Positions 2,021-19,484 of a DNA stretch of 19,484 nt are shown one piece after another. A program made the translations under genes and the position numbers. The DNA is from an uncultured Gammaproteobacteria bacterium. Its GTDB lineage: Bacteria; Patescibacteriota; Microgenomatia; Daviesbacterales; UBA10151. The stretch's first letter is position 1. Each line of letters opens with the position of its first letter. Below the pieces are notes generated by a model. That model was not told where the DNA came from and ran no database searches. It was given only the letters and a program-made list of their open reading frames with translations. The stretch is from assembly GCA_964360965.1 (NCBI GenBank), contig CAYHYM010000010.1, forward strand, positions 1 to 19,484, in the 5' to 3' direction.

Positions 2021-3227
2021 ATTTATTCCTTCCTTCTCTTGCCTCTGAAGTCCAGTCTTTAAGCTGAACCGCATATTTTTCCAGTTCTTTTATTTTTTGA
2101 GCAGAGTATTTTTTGGCCTGGAAATATTTATTGAGGGCTTCAATTGGGGAAAGCCTTTCAATTTCTTCTTGACCCTCAATTCTTATTCTTTCTTTTCTTT
2201 CTATATTTCTTTGGATACCGGCCATAAAATGAGCGTTATTCAGCACTCTTTTAATCTGGTCAATTTGTAAAACTTCATGCAGATCAGCCGGGATATTGAT
2301 AATCAATCGAATGATTTTATCTTTGATATCATACTCTTTGATTTTAGAAAGAATTGTTTGGGTGGGATTTGTATCATCCATCTTTAAATCAATAGTGATG
2401 GCTAGAAACTTCCTGGCATTGGTGGGGATAAACTGAAAAGAGCTGGTATATTTATGGTTCCCCGCCTTCGCGGGGACTTCGGGAGTAATTTCTACTAGAA
2501 TTACTCCCTTCGCTTCTTTTTCCTCGCCAAAATCAATTCTCTGAGGAGAGCCGGAATAAACAATCAGGGGATTTTTAGAAAGCACCTGGTGTTTATGAAT
2601 ATGTCCTAAAGCCACATAAGAAAGTCTTTTATCTTGTAATAAGGGAAGGGGGACTGTGACATCATTGGCAATAGCCAACCCTTTTTCTGATCCGTAGGAG
2701 GCGCCTTCCACCTCACAGTGTGATAAAAATATGGCAGGGGAGTTGGGGGTAATTTTTTCATACAAAAGATTTAATTTATCACCCACTGTTTTGTAATCAT
2801 TTTTATGAAGCCATGGTAAAGTGACAACTTGTAAGTTTCCTGATTTGGTGGGAATTGTTAAAAGCTCCGGTTTTCTTGAAACATAGACATTGTCAATCTC
2901 TAAAGCTGAATAAATATCCAAAGTATTAGCCTTGCCTTCTGCATTTGGGGTATCATGGTTTCCCACCACCAAAATAACCGGTATTTTTTTGGCCAAACTT
3001 TTAATTCTTTCTCCAAAGCCTCTTTGTTGTGTTGGGTTTGGATCACGGGTTCTGTAAGCATCTCCTGCGAAAACAACCGCATCAACATCATTCTTGAAAG
3101 CAGTTTCAATAATAAAATCAAAAGTTTTAAAAAAATCCAACAGCCTGGTAGAAAGGCCTGTTTCCGGGTCCAACTTGGCATAATTTTCCATGCCAATATG
3201 AAGATCAGAAAAATGCAGTAGTTTCAT
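2007..3227 (-). CDS. sbcD: SbcD/Mre11-family nuclease
   Basis: 406 aa. Calcineurin-like phosphoesterase motifs are present: [36 protein letters not shown]. Canonical sbcD-sbcC order with overlapping stop/start. Confidence 0.92.
2460..2508. repeat. Two adjacent hairpin-forming palindromes inside sbcD
   Basis: CCCCGC(2460-2465)-cttc-GCGGGG(2470-2475). Then GGGAGTAATT(2481-2490), an 8-nt loop, and AATTACTCCC(2499-2508), a perfect 10-bp inverted repeat. Flanked by CTTCG motifs. Encodes ..[20 protein letters not shown].. on the minus strand. Confidence 0.6.
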
Positions 3228-4858: not shown

Positions 4859-5476
4859 AAAGATTTGAATTTTGGCTTTTGTTCTTAGTTCCTGGAATTT
4901 TTGATTAAAAATTTGAGAAAGCTTTTGATTTTTGATTGTATCGTATGCTTCTTTTTCCTGTTTTGCAGATTCTGTGGCTTGTAAACTACTTCTGTTTTGT
5001 TCTAAGAATTCAGCTACCTCATCCGCAGAAACTGTAGCTTCCTTGTCATAGAGTTTTGAGATGGCAAGTTGCACCCTTATTTGATTTTTCAAACTGATTC
5101 TGGTTTGTCCTTGCTGTGAAAGTATCAGGTCTAGAGGTTGTGCCCCACCGACATTGGTCTCTATTTCTGAGATTTTGCTTTGCACCTCTTTTTCATTGGG
5201 CATGGTTCCCATTTTTGCAGATTCTTGTAAAATTATTTTTTCATTGATTAGCTGATTTAGGGTTTGACTTCTGAATTGTTCATTAAGTTTCCCCAAAAGT
5301 TCAATTCCAGTGATAGGTTGGTTGTTAACTGTGGCAGCCACAAACCAAGACTTTTTATAAACTGCTAAAAGCAAAAGACCCGCAATTAAGATAATGAGAT
5401 AGAATTTTTTCGAGTTTCGGAAGTTTTTCAGAGTAGATAATCTTTTTAGCAAATCGTTTTTTTTACTTTGGGCCAT
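4856..5476 (-). CDS. SurA N-terminal-domain-like periplasmic/extracytoplasmic chaperone, no PPIase domain evident
   Basis: TM anchor (FYLIILIAGLLLLAVY) followed by ..VAATVNNQPITGIELLGKLNEQF..LNQLINEKIILQE.., as in SurA/PrsA N-terminal domains. The ORF track starts at TTG 5512. I prefer ATG 5476 (MAQSKK..) because an extended -10 box sits 6 nt upstream of it. Confidence 0.55.
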   Translation of the reverse strand: MAQSKKNDLLKRLSTLKNFRNSKKFYLIILIAGLLLLAVYKKSWFVAATVNNQPITGIELLGKLNEQFRSQTLNQLINEKIILQESAKMGTMPNEKEVQSKISEIETNVGGAQPLDLILSQQGQTRISLKNQIRVQLAISKLYDKEATVSADEVAEFLEQNRSSLQATESAKQEKEAYDTIKNQKLSQIFNQKFQELRTKAKIQIF

Positions 5477-5491
5477 TGCCAGATCATAACA
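5477..5491 (-). promoter_or_regulatory. Extended -10 promoter for the SurA-like gene, predicted leaderless
   Basis: Minus strand reads TGTTATGAT (5491-5483), then 6 nt (ctggca), then ATG at 5476. Confidence 0.45.
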
Positions 5492-5552
5492 AAATAAATT
5501 ATCTTTTGGCAAGCACTAAAACAAATAAATATCTACAAACTTTGCCCTCCAG

Positions 5553-5572
5553 CACTTCGACTTCACTCAGTG
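5553..5572 (+). repeat. Mini-repeat copy (cac-TTCGACTTCACTCA-gtg), intergenic, 3' of the G5/3D gene
   Basis: 14-nt core is 13/14 identical to the copy at 6326-6339. Flanked by a 3-bp complementary clamp. Confidence 0.7.
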
Positions 5573-5577
5573 TTTTC

Positions 5578-5620
5578 GCGCAAAATTCTTAAAGTAAATA
5601 AATGTCAATGAATTTTGCGC
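5578..5620 (-). terminator. 11-bp perfect inverted repeat enclosing the stop codon of the G5/3D gene (possible 3' stabiliser or terminator)
   Basis: GCGCAAAATTC (5578-5588) pairs with GAATTTTGCGC (5610-5620). The 21-nt loop contains the stop at 5589-5591. No U-tract follows on the minus strand, so this is not a canonical intrinsic terminator. Confidence 0.3.
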
Positions 5621-6323
5621 TCCAACCTGCAGTTCTAGCATCATCAAATCCTAGATCTATAATATTTCCTTTAATAGCTCCACCTGTATCTCCAGCTATT
5701 GCTATTCCATATCCAGGAATATAAACTCTTGATCTCAAAAGTATAACTTTTGGATCAACGGCTATCACGCCTTTACCTGCTCTCATACCAATAGCTGTCC
5801 ATTCATTACACCCTGCGCACTTTGAATCATAATGAGTGGCATAAACCCGTAATTTTTTCCAATATTGGATGGAACCAGCAGGTGTATCCAGAGTTCTCCA
5901 AACAATTTTAGTGCCCCGCAAGATTTGCTTATCTTTTGCCGGGAAGTTTTCGCTGGAGATAATTTCCCTGGAGTATTCCTCATCAGGACTCACCTCGAAG
6001 GAGTCGAAGCCCACCTTCGAGGTGTTTGCTCCTTTGTAGTAAGTAACTTTTATAATTTTTACTCTTTTACCATCTGCCCCTTCATCTAAAACTTCCTCAA
6101 TTCCTGCTTCTTCCTCCGGGTCATCCTGGTAAACTGTTTTTTTAGGAATAACTTCTGTTTCCTCCTGCAGCTTTTCTGTAAATGAGGATTCTGTTGTAAC
6201 TGGCTGGTTAGCTGGCAGGGTATTATCCGATATAGCCTCACCCAAAACAGAATTTGTAGGAAAAACTGTCCCTGCCAAAAAAGAAACAAGCATTATCAGC
6301 AATATCCCAAAATATCTTTCCAT
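5589..6323 (-). CDS. Secreted G5-domain plus 3D-domain (MltA/YabE-like) cell-wall protein
   Basis: Signal/TM MERYFGILLIMLVSFLAG. G5-like ..EGADGKRVKIIKVTYYKG... C-terminal 3D domain ..RVYATHYDSKCAGCNEWTAIGMRAGKGVIAVDP..IPGYGIAIAGDTGGAIKGNIIDLGFDD... The ORF track start is 6356. Its extra 11 residues (MPDYSGERSRT) are encoded by a mini-repeat copy, so ATG 6323 is preferred but not certain. Confidence 0.75.
   Translation of the reverse strand: MERYFGILLIMLVSFLAGTVFPTNSVLGEAISDNTLPANQPVTTESSFTEKLQEETEVIPKKTVYQDDPEEEAGIEEVLDEGADGKRVKIIKVTYYKGANTSKVGFDSFEVSPDEEYSREIISSENFPAKDKQILRGTKIVWRTLDTPAGSIQYWKKLRVYATHYDSKCAGCNEWTAIGMRAGKGVIAVDPKVILLRSRVYIPGYGIAIAGDTGGAIKGNIIDLGFDDARTAGWSAKFIDIYLL
5991..6024. 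repeat. Palindromic mini-repeat inside the G5/3D gene
   Basis: CACCTCGAAGG (5991-6001) and CCTTCGAGGTG (6014-6024) form a perfect 11-bp inverted repeat. The 12-nt loop contains another TCGAAG. In-frame, it encodes TSKVGFDSFEVS between the G5 and 3D domains. Confidence 0.7.
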
Positions 6324-6342
6324 GGTTCGACTTCGCTCACCA
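6323..6342 (+). repeat. Mini-repeat copy (tgg-TTCGACTTCGCTCA-cca) at the 5' end of the G5/3D gene
   Basis: Same orientation and near-identical core as 5553-5572. The clamp sequence differs but remains complementary. Confidence 0.7.
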
Positions 6343-6348
6343 CTATAG

Positions 6349-8220
6349 TCAGGCATTTAGCCAGTCGTCATTGTCTTTGCCTGTTTCCACATCATCTAAA
6401 AATTGATCTGAATCTTTAAAATGAGTATTTGAATTTATTAAATTTTGAGGAATATCTGACAAGAATCTGGAAACCAGATTATTAGATCTGGTGCCAAAAT
6501 ATAATCTTTGCCTGGTATAAGTTAAATAAAGTTTTTCTTTGGCCCTTGTTATTCCCACATAACAGAGTCTTCTTTCTTCCTCCAGCTCATTAGGGTCCAT
6601 CATACTTCTTGAATGAGGAAATAATCCCTCTTCCATTCCCACCATAAAAACAACCGGGAATTCCAAGCCTTTGGCGGAGTGAAGTGTCATTAAAGTTATG
6701 GCATTATTATTTTGTTCCTCACTCCTTTTCTTGTTAGGGATATATCCATTTTCCACCAAAGCCACATTTTCTAAAAAATCTGTCAGGTTTGGAAATTCCT
6801 CTGCCACAGATCGAAGTTCCTTAACATTTTCCACCCTACCTTTACCCTCTTGGGTCCCATCATCCAAATATGCAAGATAACCTGTTTTATCTAAAACTAA
6901 ATCTAGAAGCTCAAGGGTAGTATTGTCATTCGCAATGATGGACTGGAGCTCTAGTACCTTTTGTAACCTGCCCTTACCAATTTTCTCGGCCCGTTTCAAA
7001 GCAACTGAATCTTTGGGATTTTGTAGAAGTCTCAGGTAAGATAATACATCTTTAATTTCTTTTCTTTCATAGAAAGAAACCCCTCCTACCAATCTATAAG
7101 GCACACCAGCTTTTAAGAATTGTTCTTCTAAAGATCTTGATTGAGCGTTAGTTCTATAAAGGATAGCTACACCTCCCAAGGTTAAGCGCATTTTTTCACC
7201 TCGGAGGTGGTTGATGGTATTGATAATAAAAAGCGCTTCCTCTATTTCATTTCTTACTTCCACCACCTCAATTTTTTCACCACCATCTTTTTGGGTCCAA
7301 AGTTTTAAAATTGGATGAGTTTTATTTTTGGAAATAACAGCATGTGCTGCATCTAAAATATTTTGGGTGGATCTGTAGTTTTGTTCCAGATTAAAGATTT
7401 TTACATTAGGGTAATCTTTTTGGAAATTGACAATGTTTCTGAAATCTGCTCCCCTGAATGAGTAAATCGATTGTGCAGCGTCCCCAACTACACAGATATT
7501 TTTATGTCGATTTGCCAAATACTTAGAGATTAAATATTGAGCAGGATTGGTATCCTGGTATTCATCAATTAAAATGTATCTGAACTGAATTTGATAGCTG
7601 GTCAAAATGGTGGGTTCTGTTTGAAAAAGCTGGATTACTTTTAACAAAAGATCATCAAAGTCTAACGCGTGATTTTTCTGCAAAATTTTTTGATACTCCA
7701 GATAAATTTTGGCCACAGTTTCCTGGAAAAATCCTCTGGCATATTGAGGGTATTCCAAAGATGAGAGTAGCTCATTTTTGGCTCCTGAAATGGTAGCTCT
7801 AACTGCAGCGGGGGAAGTTTTTTGGGTAGGAATGTTTAAGTTTCCCATAGCCTCTTTAACAGCATCCAAAGCATCCCCTTCATCATAAATGGCAAATCCT
7901 GGAGGAAGACCTAAACTGCGACCGTCTCGACGTAATATCTTGGCGCAGAAACTATGGAATGTTCCCATCGCGGGCTGTGTCGGGAGCTGACCAATTAGTT
8001 TCTTAATTCGTTCGATCATCTCTCCCGAGGCTTTATTGGTAAATGTCATTACAAGAATATTTTCTGGGGGAATTTTTTTCCCGGATATTAAATAAGCCAC
8101 TCTATATGTAAGCACTCTGGTTTTTCCGGAACCTGCTCCAGCTAAAATTAAAACAGGACCTTCAGTGGCCTTAACAGCTTGTTGTTGTTGTGGATTTAAA
8201 TCATGTAGGAGATCAGACAT
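6349..8220 (-). CDS. uvrD: UvrD/PcrA-type superfamily 1 ATP-dependent DNA helicase
   Basis: 623 aa. LNPQQQQAV..GPVLILAGAGSGKTRVLTYRVAYLI (Q motif and Walker A), ILIDEYQDTN (motif II), VGDAAQSIYSFRGA, LEQNYRS, TLHSAKGLEFPVVF, RRLCYVGITRAK. Confidence 0.92.
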   Translation of the reverse strand: MSDLLHDLNPQQQQAVKATEGPVLILAGAGSGKTRVLTYRVAYLISGKKIPPENILVMTFTNKASGEMIERIKKLIGQLPTQPAMGTFHSFCAKILRRDGRSLGLPPGFAIYDEGDALDAVKEAMGNLNIPTQKTSPAAVRATISGAKNELLSSLEYPQYARGFFQETVAKIYLEYQKILQKNHALDFDDLLLKVIQLFQTEPTILTSYQIQFRYILIDEYQDTNPAQYLISKYLANRHKNICVVGDAAQSIYSFRGADFRNIVNFQKDYPNVKIFNLEQNYRSTQNILDAAHAVISKNKTHPILKLWTQKDGGEKIEVVEVRNEIEEALFIINTINHLRGEKMRLTLGGVAILYRTNAQSRSLEEQFLKAGVPYRLVGGVSFYERKEIKDVLSYLRLLQNPKDSVALKRAEKIGKGRLQKVLELQSIIANDNTTLELLDLVLDKTGYLAYLDDGTQEGKGRVENVKELRSVAEEFPNLTDFLENVALVENGYIPNKKRSEEQNNNAITLMTLHSAKGLEFPVVFMVGMEEGLFPHSRSMMDPNELEEERRLCYVGITRAKEKLYLTYTRQRLYFGTRSNNLVSRFLSDIPQNLINSNTHFKDSDQFLDDVETGKDNDDWLNA

Positions 8221-8236
8221 GCAAACAATCTTAGCA
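8221..8236 (-). promoter_or_regulatory. Extended -10 promoter for uvrD, predicted leaderless
   Basis: Minus strand reads TGCTAAGAT (8236-8228), then 7 nt (tgtttgc), then ATG at 8220. Confidence 0.45.
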
Positions 8237-8397
8237 TTTTCTATTAAATTGTGAAACTGTTTTAGATATAGGGTGTAAGATTTCAGTCAAAATTTAGGTG
8301 ATTTTGCAATATTTTGAAGCTAGTATATTGAAAGATAAGGTATAATAACATTGAAATCTTACATCTGATTTTAGTTGTAGACAATTTTGGGAAGGGT

Positions 8398-8406
8398 TGT
8401 TAATAT
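8398..8406 (+). promoter_or_regulatory. Extended -10 box upstream of the thioredoxin gene
   Basis: TGTTAATAT at 8398-8406, 10 nt before ATG 8417. No Shine-Dalgarno sequence in between. Confidence 0.35.
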
Positions 8407-8416
8407 TTAAATTCTT

Positions 8417-8677
8417 ATGGCAGTTAAACTTTTGGATTTTTGGGCTGAGTGGTGTTTCCCGTGCCGTACAATGGCCCCAGTTTTAGAAGAGCTTGAGAAA
8501 GAACTAGCTGGTAAAGTGGAGATTGAGAAAATAAATGTTGATGAAAATCAGGCCAAGGCTTCTGAGTATGGAGTAATGAGTATTCCTACCTATATCATAG
8601 AAAAAGATGGCAAAGAGGTGGGAAGAAAAATAGGAGTGACTGCCAAAGCGGAGCTTTTAAAACTTCTTCAGAGTTAG
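8417..8677 (+). CDS. trxA: Short thioredoxin with WCFPC active site
   Basis: 86 aa. DFWAEWCFPCRTMAPVLEEL.., ..MSIPTYII.. (cis-Pro region). An in-frame TAA at 8408-8410 excludes a longer N-terminus. Confidence 0.85.
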   Translation: MAVKLLDFWAEWCFPCRTMAPVLEELEKELAGKVEIEKINVDENQAKASEYGVMSIPTYIIEKDGKEVGRKIGVTAKAELLKLLQS

Positions 8678-8700
8678 ATTCTTCGCTAATCGCTCAGAAT
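8678..8700 (+). repeat. Mini-repeat copy (attc-TTCGCTAATCGCTCA-gaat) immediately after the trx stop
   Basis: Core shares TTCG..CGCTCA with the other copies. 4-bp complementary clamp ATTC/GAAT. Begins 1 nt after the TAG at 8675-8677. Confidence 0.6.
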
Positions 8701-8712
8701 GACGGGGTGGGT

Positions 8713-9033: not shown

Positions 9034-9697
9034 TTGGAAAAGCAACAAAACAATAAGCGAAGCGTTAGACTGGATTTCTAAAGTTGGACCTAATATTCCT
9101 AAAAAAGATCCTTCGACAAGCTCAGGATTAAAAGTGGTGGTTTGTCCCACTTTTGTAGATATTGAAGAGGTAAAAAAGTCAGTTTTGGTTGGTAATTTTC
9201 CTATTATGATTGGATCTCAAGATTTATCCCCATATCCTGAAGGTTCTTTCACCGGTGAAGAGGCAGCATCTATTTTAAAACAATTTGTCAGCTTGGCCAT
9301 TTTGGGGCATTCTGAACGCCGAACTAATTTTGGAGAAACAGATAAGATGGTAGCTTTAAAGGTTAAACAGGCTCTTGATCACAATATCATTCCTCTTGTT
9401 TGTGTTCAGGGTGATCAAACTCCGGTGCCAGAAGGGTGTACACTGGCCGCTTATGAGCCGATCTTTGCCATAGGTACAGGACATGCTGATACGCCACAAG
9501 ATGCAGAGATGGTTGCCGGGTCTTTGAAAAAAAAGTATGGAGAGAATTTGCGGGTTTTGTATGGAGGCAGTGTAACAGCGGAAAACATCAAAGGATATAT
9601 AAGTCGGCAGAACATAAGTGGAGTTTTAGTGGGGAGCGCTTCACTTAATCCATCAGAGTTTTTGGAAATAGTGGACAAGGCAGCTTTGACAATATGA
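8996..9697 (+). CDS. tpiA: Triosephosphate isomerase
   Basis: 233 aa. IIANWKSNKT, ILGHSERR, AAYEPIFAIGTG, LYGGSV, VLVGSASL. 38-nt overlap with the ATL gene and an ATGA overlap with the next gene. Confidence 0.9.
   Translation: MDGGEKNIWIIANWKSNKTISEALDWISKVGPNIPKKDPSTSSGLKVVVCPTFVDIEEVKKSVLVGNFPIMIGSQDLSPYPEGSFTGEEAASILKQFVSLAILGHSERRTNFGETDKMVALKVKQALDHNIIPLVCVQGDQTPVPEGCTLAAYEPIFAIGTGHADTPQDAEMVAGSLKKKYGENLRVLYGGSVTAENIKGYISRQNISGVLVGSASLNPSEFLEIVDKAALTI
9107..9129 (+). repeat. Mini-repeat copy in-frame inside tpiA
   Basis: g-ATCC-TTCGACAAGCTCA-GGAT-t, encoding ..DPSTSSGL.. in the loop after the first helix. Confidence 0.6.
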
Positions 9698-10878: not shown

Positions 10879-11518
10879 TAGTTCTCGTACTAAACTTTTG
10901 GAGATCAAGAAAAAATTTGACCCCGAAAATGTGATTGTTTTCGAAAAGGGGGCTGATCCTAAGAATATTTTAGATACATTGGTGGCAACACCACTTTTTG
11001 GTGAGAATAAGTTAGTGTTGATAGAGAATCCAGCAGAAGACTTACCTTTACCAACTACCATGAACCATTTACCATATACTATGGTATTGTGGTTTGACCA
11101 TGAAATTGATCCCAAAATAAAAGGTGAAGTTTTATTTTTCCCGGAGGCGAAGGAAGTTTCTATATTTCCATTTTTGGACTATTTAGGAAATCGTGATAAA
11201 AAAGCTTTTCTTCAGATGGATAAATTAAAAAAAGCCCCACTTCGCCCCTTCAACAAAGCTCAGGGCTTCGCAGGTCAAGGCAGTGATACTCAGTACATCA
11301 TAACAATGATTTTTTATTTATTAAGAAACCTGGTCTATACTCCAAAAAGTGCCAAAGATTTTGTCAAAAAGAAAAATGCCAAAATGCGGGCCAATTTTTC
11401 TCAACAAGAGTTGGTAGATTTATATAAATTTGTTCTGGAAACTGATTTTAAATTAAAATCAGGGCTGATGGAATCCGAGCAAGCTGAGTTTTCACTGGTT
11501 AATCTTTTTTGCAATTAA
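10844..11518 (+). CDS. holA: DNA polymerase III delta subunit-like (short form)
   Basis: 224 aa. N-term MKLLLLHGP..LATPLFGENKLVLIENP and a C-terminal helical region resemble HolA. The assignment is by pattern only. Confidence 0.55.
   Translation: MKLLLLHGPATNSSRTKLLEIKKKFDPENVIVFEKGADPKNILDTLVATPLFGENKLVLIENPAEDLPLPTTMNHLPYTMVLWFDHEIDPKIKGEVLFFPEAKEVSIFPFLDYLGNRDKKAFLQMDKLKKAPLRPFNKAQGFAGQGSDTQYIITMIFYLLRNLVYTPKSAKDFVKKKNAKMRANFSQQELVDLYKFVLETDFKLKSGLMESEQAEFSLVNLFCN
11234..11281 (+). repeat. GC-rich mini-repeat-like insert in-frame inside the holA-like gene
   Basis: gccccaCTTCGccCCTTCAACAAAGCTCAGGGCTTCGcaggtcaaggc, encoding PLRPFNKAQGFAGQG. Contains the CCTTC(G/A)AC-AA-GCTCAGG core seen in tpiA. 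Confidence 0.5.
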
Positions 11519-17581: not shown

Positions 17582-17606
17582 ATCCTCAAGGAGGCGTCGA
17601 AGAATC
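17582..17606 (-). repeat. Degenerate mini-repeat copy downstream of lepA
   Basis: Reverse complement reads GATTC-TTCGACGCCTCCTTGA-GGAT. It shares the TTCGAC start and a wobble-tolerant clamp. Confidence 0.4.
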
Positions 17607-18288: not shown

Positions 18289-18299
18289 CGCTTTGCGTC

Positions 18300-18330
18300 A
18301 TCCTGAGGAGACATTAAGTCGACGAAGGAT
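18300..18330 (-). repeat. Mini-repeat copy downstream of the DUF378 gene
   Basis: ATCCT(18300-18304)..AGGAT(18326-18330) clamp. Reverse complement reads ATCCTTCGTCGAC..CTCCTCAGGAT. Preceded by palindrome TGACGC-ttt-GCGTCA (18286-18300), which includes the stop codon. Confidence 0.5.
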
Positions 18331-18346
18331 CTAAGGTTCTTATTTA

Positions 18347-18434: not shown

Positions 18435-19163
18435 ATGGTTGATTTATCTGATAGACAACAAGCACTTTTAAAAGCAATCATTGAGGAATATATAGAGAAT
18501 GCAGAGCCTGTTGGTTCAGAGGTAATCGAGAGAAAATATGATCTTGGAGTCTCGCCTGCCACTATCAGGATTGAAATGGTCAAATTAACCGATATGGGGT
18601 ATTTAAAACAACCCCATACCTCAGCAGGCAGGGTACCGACTTCTTTGGGCTTTAGGCTCTATATTCAGGATCTGATGAAGGAAAAGGAGCTTCCTGTCAC
18701 AGCCGAGGTTTCCATCAAGGAAAAACTTTGGCAGGAAAGATTTAGACGCGAGAGACTTCTTAAAGAGGCAGTGAAAGCTTTGGCAGATAGATGTGATATG
18801 TTGGGTTTGGCAACAGATAATGAGGGCCAACTCTACTGGGCGGGAGCTGCCAATATTTTGGACTGGCCTGAATTTTATGATATTGATGTGACCAGATTTG
18901 TTTTATCACTTTTTGATGAAAATCCTAGGTTAAAAGAGATTATAGGCAAGGCTGTTGGTTCTGACCCAATACATATACTTTTTGGTGAGGACATGGAATT
19001 TGAGTATTTGCGCCCAACCAGTTTTATTTTTACCAGATATGAGATGGATCTTGAGAAAGATGGGATTATTGGAGTAATTGGCCCTGCCAGAATGAATTTT
19101 GCGCTGGTTTTGCCTTATGTAAAATATGTGAGAAATTTATTAGTGGAAGCAGGCCACGTTTAG
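18435..19163 (+). CDS. hrcA: Heat-inducible transcription repressor HrcA (short form)
   Basis: 242 aa. LSDRQQALLKAIIEEYIENAEPVGSEVI..GVSPATIRIEMVKLTDMGYLKQPHTSAGRVPT.. (wHTH), and C-terminal ..GVIGPARMNF... Confidence 0.9.
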   Translation: MVDLSDRQQALLKAIIEEYIENAEPVGSEVIERKYDLGVSPATIRIEMVKLTDMGYLKQPHTSAGRVPTSLGFRLYIQDLMKEKELPVTAEVSIKEKLWQERFRRERLLKEAVKALADRCDMLGLATDNEGQLYWAGAANILDWPEFYDIDVTRFVLSLFDENPRLKEIIGKAVGSDPIHILFGEDMEFEYLRPTSFIFTRYEMDLEKDGIIGVIGPARMNFALVLPYVKYVRNLLVEAGHV

Positions 19164-19209
19164 TTTACATAAACGTGGCAGGCCACAATTAGTTTACATA
19201 ATTGCGGCA
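19152..19209 (+). repeat. Two tandem 29-nt hairpin units with identical 11-nt loops
   Basis: Unit 1 is GGCCACGTT-TAGTTTACATA-AACGTGGC-a (19152-19180). Unit 2 is GGCCACAAT-TAGTTTACATA-ATTGCGGC-a (19181-19209). The hrcA stop TAG (19161-19163) opens loop 1. Unit 2 ends 1 nt before the grpE SD GGGAGGA (19210-19216). Confidence 0.7.
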
Positions 19210-19226: not shown

Positions 19227-19484
19227 ATGGCAAAGAAACAAGATAAAGTTGCAGAATTAGAACAAAGAGTGGCAGAGCTGGAAGCACAACTAAAACGTGC
19301 CGTGGCTGATTATCAAAACTTAGAAAAAAGAATCAGTCAAGGTAGGTCAGAGTTAACAAGTTTTATGGGAGCGGAGTTGGTTAGGAAGTTGTTGCCAGTG
19401 GTTGACCACCTGGAGACTGTGATAAATGGGGGCCGACAGGTCCTGAGTGAGCAAAGCGAGTCGAAAGATTGGTTTAAAGGAGTA
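19227..19484 (+). CDS. grpE: Nucleotide exchange factor GrpE; N-terminal part, runs off the window
   Basis: MAKKQDKVAELEQRVAELEAQLKRAVADYQNLEKR..LLPVVDHLE... Canonical position after hrcA. 86 codons remain open to the window end. Confidence 0.85.
   Translation, partial: MAKKQDKVAELEQRVAELEAQLKRAVADYQNLEKRISQGRSELTSFMGAELVRKLLPVVDHLETVINGGRQVLSEQSESKDWFKGV
19440..19468 (-). repeat. Mini-repeat copy in-frame inside grpE
   Basis: Plus strand reads gTCCTGAGTGAGCAAAGCGAGTCGAAAGA, and the reverse complement is TCTTTCGACTCGCTTTGCTCACTCAGGAc. It encodes ..VLSEQSESKD... Confidence 0.5.

Follow-up and report, generated by a model that had tools for sequence, protein, structure and literature searches.

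Two short hairpins with almost the same core stand in the same orientation on either side of a gene for a protein with G5 and 3D domains, in a stretch of DNA 19,484 nucleotides (nt) long (contig CAYHYM010000010.1; the whole stretch is called the window below). Do they mark off that gene, or do they belong to something scattered more widely? Window proteins were matched on Hainich groundwater contigs (ERZ1292627), and the G5/3D protein has hundreds of homologues, named Candidatus Daviesbacteria by their sources; the window is from a Candidatus Daviesbacteria genome (candidate phyla radiation [CPR]/Patescibacteria) from Hainich groundwater. Here, we report that the window is probably peppered with miniature repeats of the repetitive extragenic palindromic (REP) type, resembling CGTC-tagged REPs but having a tandem G·A mismatch, and that the two hairpins beside the G5/3D gene (focal copies 1 and 2) are independent insertions.

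The comparison set consisted of about 48 related loci, syntenic and about 20 kb each (designated L003, L006, etc.). Stems of at least 4 bp enclosing GAG..CGA occur 6 times in the window and 0.28 times in shuffles, and 26 times in the first set of related loci, where about 5 were expected. Because this pattern had been derived from the window, an unbiased loop-edge scan was run: all perfect hairpins (stem of at least 5 bp, loop of 6 to 32 nt) in 459 kb of Daviesbacteria-like DNA were classed by every combination of the first three and last three loop bases and compared with shuffles. Hairpins with GAG/CGA loop edges headed all classes (44 observed, 3.1 expected, 12-fold); the next class was enriched 4-fold. 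The dispersed hairpin family is real and strongly enriched, and its stems covary.

The consensus of the main class is YGTC-AT[TC]C[TC]-GA-(short GC stem-loop)-GA-[AG]G[AG]AT-CT[AC], that is, on the strand with GA..GA, an unpaired YGTC tag, a 5-bp stem opening A-T, the tandem mismatch (G·A/A·G), a variable inner part (GC stem of 2 to 4 bp, loop of 3 to 5 nt, sometimes nested hairpins), and a CT[AC] tail. Over the 44 copies, tag positions -4 to -1 read T29/C12, G31, T36, and C31, the first two stem positions are A in 38 and T in 36 (27 and 23 of the 28 copies in alignment A3), and the tail reads C30 T31 A25/C13. Stem letters vary (ATTCT, ATCCT, ATTCC, GTCCT, ACCCT, and others), as do loops. Since covariation of the outer stem had been selected for, the next inner pair, which had not, was examined; it is paired in 23 of 28 copies (CG, GC, UG, and UA types), and GAG and CGA, six bases in all, do not vary across the 28. 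The resulting geometry, two stems around a 2 × 2 loop (5'-GA/5'-GA), amounts to a tandem G·A mismatch set in Y-GA-R and fixes the meaningful strand. In that context, tandem G·A is stable in RNA and DNA. Readings as a tRNA-like T-arm, a hammerhead, or a K-turn were dropped by eye, there being no bulge and no three-way junction.

Copies commonly form convergent doublets, spaced by 10 to 40 nt and with their tags outermost; six are at L006 9296/9327 and 12509/12545, L102 5199/5254 and 8761/8819, L089 8570/8611, and L112 1888/1913. About 40% of strict-pattern matches lie deep within long open reading frames (ORFs), orientation relative to genes is mixed, and many copies stand 5 to 15 nt behind stop codons. 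Right behind the G5/3D stop of L005 (10700-10850), the otherwise dispersed repeat forms a tandem array of at least four 33-bp units, each with the hairpin ATTCC GAGTCTTCGA GGAAT. Some elements are nested in the loop of another, in the same or the opposite orientation (L085 6776-6821, L103 7035-7076), which suggests that hairpin loops are preferred sites of insertion or formation. Several repeat sub-types coexist in these small Daviesbacteria-like genomes, since other palindromes use the same GTCAT...ATC frame (L007 9920-10000, L091 ~2372-2400, the spacer between thioredoxin [Trx] and triosephosphate isomerase [TIM] genes of L102, and L109 ~300-340; for example, GTCATTCTGAACTTGATTCAGAATCT and GTCATTGCGAG...GCAATCT); L007 also has a stop-rich repeat of the cagtcatcag type.

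Covariance model R1, built from alignment A3 (28 copies, none from the window), gave 40 matches in 440 kb of Daviesbacteria-like loci and 6 in 1.11 Mb of other phyla, mostly Chloroflexota. Counts per locus were uneven (L102, 9; L006, 7; L089, 7; many, 0). R1 matched the window at 8675-8704 (E value, 1e-7; 39.5 bits), 9105-9132 (1e-4), and 18296-18333 (3e-4) and more weakly at 5548-5578 (0.22, marginal) and 11242-11270 (5.4); 6323-6342, 17582, and 19440 were unlisted, and 5991-6024 was undetected. A first-pass annotation of the window had put all of these, and possibly one more, in a single family. Its members at 8678, 9107, and 18300 stand (E ≤ 3e-4), that at 11234 is weak, those at 17582 and 19440 are degenerate, and that at 2460 is of another type; a family dispersed in both orientations, between and within genes, was rightly seen, but the single list merges at least three palindrome types. 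A strict-pattern match at 19408-19441 is ordinary coding sequence, negative with R1, and was treated as chance. The element proposed as a third family copy in the G5/3D gene is, as described, in frame and a perfect 11-bp inverted repeat (5991-6001/6014-6024) with three CTTCGA/TCGAAG motifs, and it folds well (-21.4 kcal/mol; z, -5.1). It was left outside the hairpin family because R1 does not detect it, and the 45-nt insert that holds it sits inside the Pfam G5 envelope (residues 52-139), not cleanly between the G5 and 3D domains.

The focal copies, cacTTCGACTTCACTCAgtg (5553-5572) and tggTTCGACTTCGCTCAcca (6323-6342), read as originally described, in the same orientation and with cores identical at 13 of 14 positions. 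Their clamps differ and are complementary, as had been noted, but are 4 bp long (CACT/AGTG and TGGT/ACCA), not 3 bp. The core first given for them, TTCGAC..GCTCAG, is the antisense reading of a small untagged sub-family, clamp-GAG(C/T)GAAGTCGA-clamp. The 12-nt core of this sub-family, GAGNGNARTCGA, occurs 8 times in the 459 kb (0.6 expected). Clamps that differ yet pair hold at this level too: 6 of the 8 are fully paired over 4 bp (TGGT/ACCA, CACT/AGTG twice, TACT/AGTA twice, and CCCT/AGGG) and the other 2 at 3 of 4 positions. Longer relatives have an extra hairpin between GAGCGA and AGTCGA (L003 16031, L010 19138, L006 9956, and window 19440). By itself the focal pair is weak, a chance 14-mer pair being expected, and we regard the two copies as marginal, untagged members of the hairpin family. 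The upstream copy was found in the window and L006 only and the downstream module in about 10 lineages; the two are independent insertions or polymorphisms, not the ends of one unit. The final stem base of focal copy 2 is the A of the G5/3D ATG, and a TATAGT hexamer resembling a -10 box stands directly ahead of it; either could affect expression.

The conserved gene order of the related loci made a slot-by-slot comparison feasible, and the presence/absence differences that the first-pass annotation had proposed looking for were found (TIM, holA, SbcD, UvrD, G5/3D, and intergenic slots). Most genomes have nothing in the UvrD-G5/3D spacer, the UvrD stop touching or overlapping the G5/3D start; the window has 25 nt there, and L006 has a different, longer element. 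At the Trx-ATL junction, most genomes have an overlapping stop/start, and an element with a Shine-Dalgarno-like stretch is present in the window and L093 only; its 23 nt and flanks are identical in the two, with neighboring proteins 65 to 84% identical. Inserts confined to the window are PSTSSG in TIM (1 of 19 orthologues; a different insert occupies this site in L017) and 14 residues in holA (1 of 13, absent from the other 12). One SbcD loop holds different inserts in four genomes. Adjoining the hairpin inserted there, a 10-bp perfect inverted repeat (GGGAGTAATT...AATTACTCCC, 2479-2506, minus strand) lies in conserved SbcD coding sequence (GVILVEITP); it may be due to chance (by a rough count, ~0.4 such repeats are expected per window). 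UvrD has in-frame doublets (VILSEAKDL...QNDK) at two sites in L006, L089, and L102 (3 of 9), and at one of these sites the window retains IIANDN, encoded by ATCATTGCGAATGACAAT, probably what remains (two outer ends) of an inverted doublet deleted here and still whole in those three loci. Of 25 homologues, 12 have the 45-nt insert in G5/3D (+15 residues); the closest ones lack it.

In-frame coding copies are thus far seen in UvrD, SbcD, holA, TIM, Fem, and the gene behind hrcA, which we take, by position alone, to be grpE-like. Target-site duplications, which the first-pass annotation had also proposed looking for, were sought at the flanks and none were found; flanking direct repeats beyond chance were limited to one tandem array and the copies of the G5/3D gene end. 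Gains and losses of copies are seen at orthologous slots, and those in frame lie at tolerant protein loops.

We consider it probable, then, that these are REP-type repeats. They would spread or be re-created as single-stranded DNA hairpins, through an unlinked enzyme (HUH-type [histidine-hydrophobic-histidine] or other) or through template switching at hairpins during replication, and effects on the host (protection of RNA 3' ends, translation of the adjacent start or stop) would be secondary. Several points weigh against this. The shuffled-background comparison suggested in the first-pass annotation, which bears out the family, does not bear out the focal 14-mer: with up to 3 mismatches, the window holds the 2 focal sites alone and shuffles hold 2.06. 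Both focal hairpins fold no better than shuffles (-2.6 and -2.4 kcal/mol; z, -0.6 and -0.15), and they have neither the YGTC tag nor the AT stem start (flanks, gaaaa before CACT and tatag before TGGT); with the canonical model R1, focal copy 1 is at E 0.22 and focal copy 2 is unlisted. As untagged, R1-marginal, and trivially stable hairpins, they owe their membership to the 12-nt core and clamp pattern only. The main class was likened to CGTC-type REP/RPE-like repeats (RPE, Rickettsia palindromic element), of which we take it to be a variant, by published description and not by alignment to the consensus sequences CGTC-1 to CGTC-4. The case for mobility comes from presence/absence differences among species; the ~20-kb loci showed neither recent identical copies nor a transposase. 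Finally, the UvrD copies of L006, L089, and L102 have kept stem and GA positions while the inner loop diverged; this and the identical element of the window and L093 suit purifying selection (host function) no less than selfish spread, and host function or ongoing homogenization may lie behind conserved copies.

An explanation built on such function, which we hold to be unlikely, takes the hairpin as a functional single-stranded RNA (or DNA) motif under selection, a protein-binding stem with a tandem sheared G·A platform that acts on mRNA stability, processing, or translation and has been dispersed by its usefulness, not by selfishness. Besides the UvrD copies and the 23-nt element with its flanks, it would account for the strict strand asymmetry (GA..GA always on one strand), for the invariance of GAG/CGA in 28 copies whose stems covary, and for the many copies close behind stops. 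It sits poorly with the uneven copy number among sister species (9 in L102, 7 in L006, none in many), with copies in both orientations relative to transcription, and with the ~40% of copies in coding sequence, where they add junk peptides. Uneven copy number was also used against a general function by Di Nocera et al. in their survey (PMC3733652). A consensus scan for terminator-like T-runs called no element on the transcribed strand (the tails are CTA/CTC), and Rfam gave no match at the hairpins at E ≤ 10.

Focal copy 1 lies within a duplicated end of the G5/3D gene. The order on the gene strand after Gly233 is a (the functional last codons and stop), b (an inverted partial copy), GAAAA, focal hairpin 1, C, and a-prime (a second copy of the last codons and stop) (Table 1). 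In the predicted fold, coding sequence pairs with b and leaves the last codons and stop in a 21-nt loop. The arrangement is the same in L008, L009/L095, L010, L016, L085, L086, and L088 (twice), with an orphan array in L083; in all, the duplicated end recurs in at least 10 relatives, truncated third copies (VDIYLL-stop) stand behind a second hairpin in L006, L083, and L085, and every locus with b and hairpin in the slot comparison carried an a-prime. By compensatory differences, b tracks a and not a-prime (GCGCAAAATTC/GAATTTTGCGC; GTGCAAAATTC/GAATTTTGCAC; GTGCACG/CGTGCAC; ...AAAGTTC/GAACTT...). The a-prime copies, which were gathered by peptide pattern and so are biased to intact ones, vary among themselves chiefly at the third position of codons (102/57/267), with a ratio of nonsynonymous to synonymous differences (pN/pS) of 0.17 (0.14 to 0.19 for functional ends). 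All 10 full-length copies keep the stop, at spacings of 71, 72, 73, or 81 nt. Residues invariant in functional proteins are broken in a-prime of L010 (A236T) and L088 (D240Y, twice), and nearly invariant L244 is F in the window, which suggests mild decay. The a-prime copies form no clade of their own, and on a UvrD tree of poor resolution the cassette genomes fall in scattered places. Recent self-duplication was ruled out by saturated synonymous sites between a and a-prime of one genome. Also rejected was a template/variable pair of the diversity-generating retroelement type; the differences show no adenine specificity, and by eye no nearby reverse transcriptase was seen. Segmental duplications or insertions probably left more distant orphan C-terminal fragments (L010, L083, L085, L094) as by-products; these adjoin toxin-antitoxin-like ORFs and "MQKGF" paralogues (by eye), not an integrase island.

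The REP-like hairpin would, in our proposal, be a hot spot where the G5/3D 3' end was duplicated or replaced, a-prime being the displaced end; a direct copy, an inverted partial copy, and a direct copy are what two template switches at the hairpin would be expected to leave. The coding-like substitution pattern of a-prime is unaccounted for by a displaced end. We think it decidedly improbable that the module is instead a recoding device (a ribosome hop from UGG to UGG across two hairpins) or a tiny site-specific cassette of C-terminus, b, and hairpin that repeatedly replaces the 3' end of the G5/3D gene. Under hopping, the product would end ...TAGWRAKFVDIYLF; the normal end is ...WSAKFIDIYLL. 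Programmed translational bypassing occurs in phage T4 gene 60 and in the mitochondrial "byp" elements of Magnusiomyces. The likeness, at sequence level, lies in matched UGG...UGG codons around the 71- to 81-nt gap, present in all cassettes, in a stem-loop starting 1 to 3 nt past the first UGG, and in a hairpin abutting the second; unlike in those systems, no stop directly follows the take-off codon, and a full, conserved C-terminus, stop included, is encoded in the gap. Read-through or frameshifting into a-prime as a second C-terminus is excluded by the four spacings. A duplicated gene end with coding-like conservation makes a small, clean puzzle.

Returning to the dispersed repeats, we find it very improbable that they are DNA-uptake-type sequences (like the DNA uptake sequences [DUS] or uptake signal sequences [USS]) of a CPR bacterium with natural competence. 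Such sequences would be expected as inverted pairs and in genome-maintenance genes; CPR bacteria generally rely on taking up DNA, and inverted doublets, coding copies in UvrD, SbcD, and holA, and pilN/pilO-like ORFs in the window (labeled by eye from translations) would fit. However, uptake sequences conserve letters, whereas here stem letters covary and loops vary, which speaks for structure, and the same architecture occurs in unrelated phyla. Chance similarity of the flanks, with a family that is an artifact of GC-rich words in an AT-rich genome, is scarcely credible: in 19.5 kb, many pairs matching at 13/14 are to be expected, the mismatch-tolerant 14-mer search was unenriched, and both hairpins are no stabler than shuffles, but the loop-edge scan and the sub-core count (8 versus 0.6, with paired clamps) have largely refuted it already, and the independent loci and window-free R1 reject it as well. 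As for an integron-like mobile G5/3D cassette delimited by direct copies as recombination sites, to which the shared orientation on both sides of one gene and the duplicated gene end beside the downstream copy would be suited, we give it almost no credence, since the UvrD-G5/3D order is kept in ~45 relatives with or without hairpins (SurA following after a variable gap), the downstream module occurs elsewhere without the upstream copy, and no integrase or attC-like structure was found; the flanking copies are independent polymorphisms, and the word "brackets," first used for them, implies a tie to the gene that does not exist.

Table 1. Repeats, insertions, and duplicated gene ends, with sequence features (positions are given for those in the window)
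Feature	Position	Strand	Sequence and context
Focal copy 1	5553-5572	-	CACT GAGTGAAGTCGA AGTG; untagged "GTCGAA" sub-family; 17 nt past the G5/3D stop codon
Focal copy 2	6323-6342	-	TGGT GAGCGAAGTCGA ACCA; between the UvrD stop (6349-6351) and the G5/3D ATG (6321-6323)
25-nt segment missing at orthologous empty sites	6324-6348	-	UvrD-G5/3D slot
45-nt in-frame insertion in G5/3D	5984-6028	-	ANTSKVGFDSFEVSP; holds the palindrome 5991-6024
Canonical tagged element	8675-8704	-	cGTC ATTCT GA GCGATTAGC GA AGAAT CTA; thioredoxin-ATL intergenic slot
In-frame copy in triosephosphate isomerase	9105-9132	-	Adds PSTSSG; R1 E value, 1e-4
42-nt in-frame holA insertion	11237-11278	-	PLRPFNKAQGFAGQ; degenerate copy CCCT GAGCTTTGTTGA AGGG, GCGAAG on both flanks
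Canonical tagged element	18296-18333	+	cGTC ATCCT GAG..CGA AGGAT CTA; longer inner hairpin; between a DUF378 gene and hrcA
Degenerate look-alike behind lepA	17582-17606	+	ATCCT caag GAGGCGTCGA AGAAT; one stem mismatch; negative with R1
Degenerate "GAGYGA-(inner hairpin)-AGTCGA" copy	19440-19468	+	In frame, encodes VLSEQSESK; close to L010 19138 and L003 16031
Perfect-stem hairpin, different sub-type	2460-2478	-	GTC CCCCGC GAAG GCGGGG; variable SbcD loop (PEVPAKAGN)
Probable UvrD remnant	6922-6939		ATTGTCATTCGCAATGAT, encodes IIANDN
a, functional last 11 codons and stop of G5/3D	5589-5624	-	WSAKFIDIYLL-stop
b	5578-5588	-	GAATTTTGCGC, perfect reverse complement of GCGCAAAATTC inside a
a-prime, second copy of last 11 codons and stop	5516-5551	-	WRAKFVDIYLF-stop; out of frame; right behind focal copy 1
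Element carrying putative tandem sheared G·A			ATTCTGAGCGATTAGCGAAGAAT

Pfam matches in the window comprise G5 and 3D, a SurA-like protein, TIM, holA, ATL, thioredoxin, and FemAB, and no tRNA genes were found there. The order conserved across loci is lepA-murJ-S20-pilN-pilO-...-holA-LCP-TIM-ATL-Trx in one block and UvrD-G5/3D-...-SurA-Fem-MT-SbcD in the other. Gene orientation (left genes minus, right genes plus) and cumulative GC skew both switch at ~8220-8417, a 196-nt divergent spacer with a 39-nt imperfect inverted repeat (8274-8312/8325-8363) that may serve as a divergent promoter region or as a landmark of replication. The top promoter-like site of the region (5476-5512, minus strand; TTGCCA-18-TATGAT with TG extension; 10/12) ends 6 nt ahead of the SurA-like ATG, with the same layout in L003 and L004; a promoter so placed would suggest a leaderless mRNA. 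Right behind the hrcA stop and before the next gene, two tandem 29-nt units (GCAGGCCACGTTTAGTTTACATAAACGTG and GCAGGCCACAATTAGTTTACATAATTGCG, 19149-19206), with one inverted repeat each, differ from the classical CIRCE (controlling inverted repeat of chaperone expression) consensus and may be a candidate operator. Inside UvrD coding sequence (6509-6607, minus strand), a match below the Rfam threshold, to RF03531 ("C. difficile sRNA included into helicase gene"; 54 bits against a gathering score of 65), is most likely conserved helicase coding sequence, not an RNA gene. Between the G5/3D and SurA-like genes, relatives have a variable region that the window does not (L083 2247-4249, L085 6880-9600, L094 1177-3400, L010 10800-15500, L103 5530-9700), with opposite-strand "MQKGF..." paralogues, orphan G5/3D C-termini (...YHDAxTAGW..DIYLL-stop), and toxin-antitoxin-like pairs (HicA/HicB-like, BrnT-like, MNT/HEPN-like; labeled by eye from translations alone).

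Among known repeats, the main class is most like the CGTC-tagged REP superfamily. In the survey that describes them (PMC3733652), these REPs have an unpaired CGTC (or TGTC/CCTC) tag, a stem starting A,T and continuous over 8 to 9 bp, loops of 4 to 5 nt, and a 3-nt unpaired tail (consensus, CCA); dimers are mainly head-to-head with the tags outside. In-frame intragenic copies cluster there in genes for DNA synthesis and repair, UvrD among them, a dedicated transposase is not known, and the repeats are listed for the phyla Proteobacteria, Chlorobi, Bacteroidetes, Spirochaetes, and Thermotogae. The superfamily includes dRS3 of Neisseria and RPE-4 and RPE-6 of R. conorii, so the REP and RPE analogies drawn in the first reading were apt (PMC3733652). 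The Daviesbacteria elements agree with that description in the YGTC tag, AT start, frame of ~9 stem positions, and 3- to 5-nt loop, and in tags-outside dimers, copies near stops, in-frame copies (UvrD and repair genes), and uneven copy number. They differ in a stem of 5 bp, invariant G·A/A·G at positions 6 and 7, and then 2 to 4 bp; with 9 to 11 positions, 2 of them never Watson-Crick, the length frame fits CGTC REPs but the continuous pairing does not. A conserved 3-nt tail stands where theirs does but reads CT[AC] in place of CCA. They differ also in variable and sometimes nested inner loops, and in a CPR/Patescibacteria host outside the five listed phyla, and the focal copies have neither tag nor AT start. 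A relative (L083) has a perfect-stem element with a CCA tail, cGTCATTCCTGCGAATGCAGGAATCCA. The survey pipeline dropped repeats with more than one stem mismatch (PMC3733652), and a tandem-G·A variant would thus have escaped it. In the literature, no report of REPs in CPR/Patescibacteria was found, in agreement with the first-pass annotation, which knew of no description of such a family for this kind of genome, but the kind of element was already described in other phyla; nothing relevant was found on the junk peptides and DNA words of the elements.

Other systems were set beside the elements by description. RPE-1, reportedly from Ogata et al. in 2000, is said to comprise palindromic elements of ~100 to 150 bp in frame in functional genes. 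Palindromic in-frame inserts at tolerated sites, present or absent among orthologues, are common to both; the elements here are 20 to 45 nt long. GTAG-tagged REPs and REPINs (REP doublets forming hairpins), as Bertels and Rainey in 2011 and Nunvar in 2010 are said to have found, are mobilized by RAYT (REP-associated tyrosine) transposases. These too are short imperfect palindromes with an unpaired tag, inverted doublets, high and variable copy number, and assumed single-stranded DNA hairpins; here, the tag is YGTC, and no RAYT gene was seen in the loci of ~20 kb. Very small mobile repeats of cyanobacteria (small dispersed repeats, SDRs; reportedly Elhai et al., 2008) are likewise ~20 to 30 nt long and nested in one another and in hairpin loops, between and within genes, and differ in sequence and host. 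Likeness to miniature inverted-repeat transposable elements (length, 70 to 300 bp, terminal inverted repeats, target-site duplication), as first suggested, does not extend to elements of 20 to 45 nt without target-site duplications.

REP-type repeats have been cataloged mostly in Proteobacteria, and their presence here would mean that streamlined CPR genomes also tolerate such DNA, with several sub-types, often inside essential genes, in ultra-small genomes. The elements account for a class of strange peptides of low complexity (VILSEAKDL..., ...SAQNDK, PSTSSG) among predicted CPR proteins. For the CGTC-type repeats, described in 2013 with no dedicated transposase known, the invariant tandem G·A of the Daviesbacteria variant provides a structural handle for finding their recognizer.

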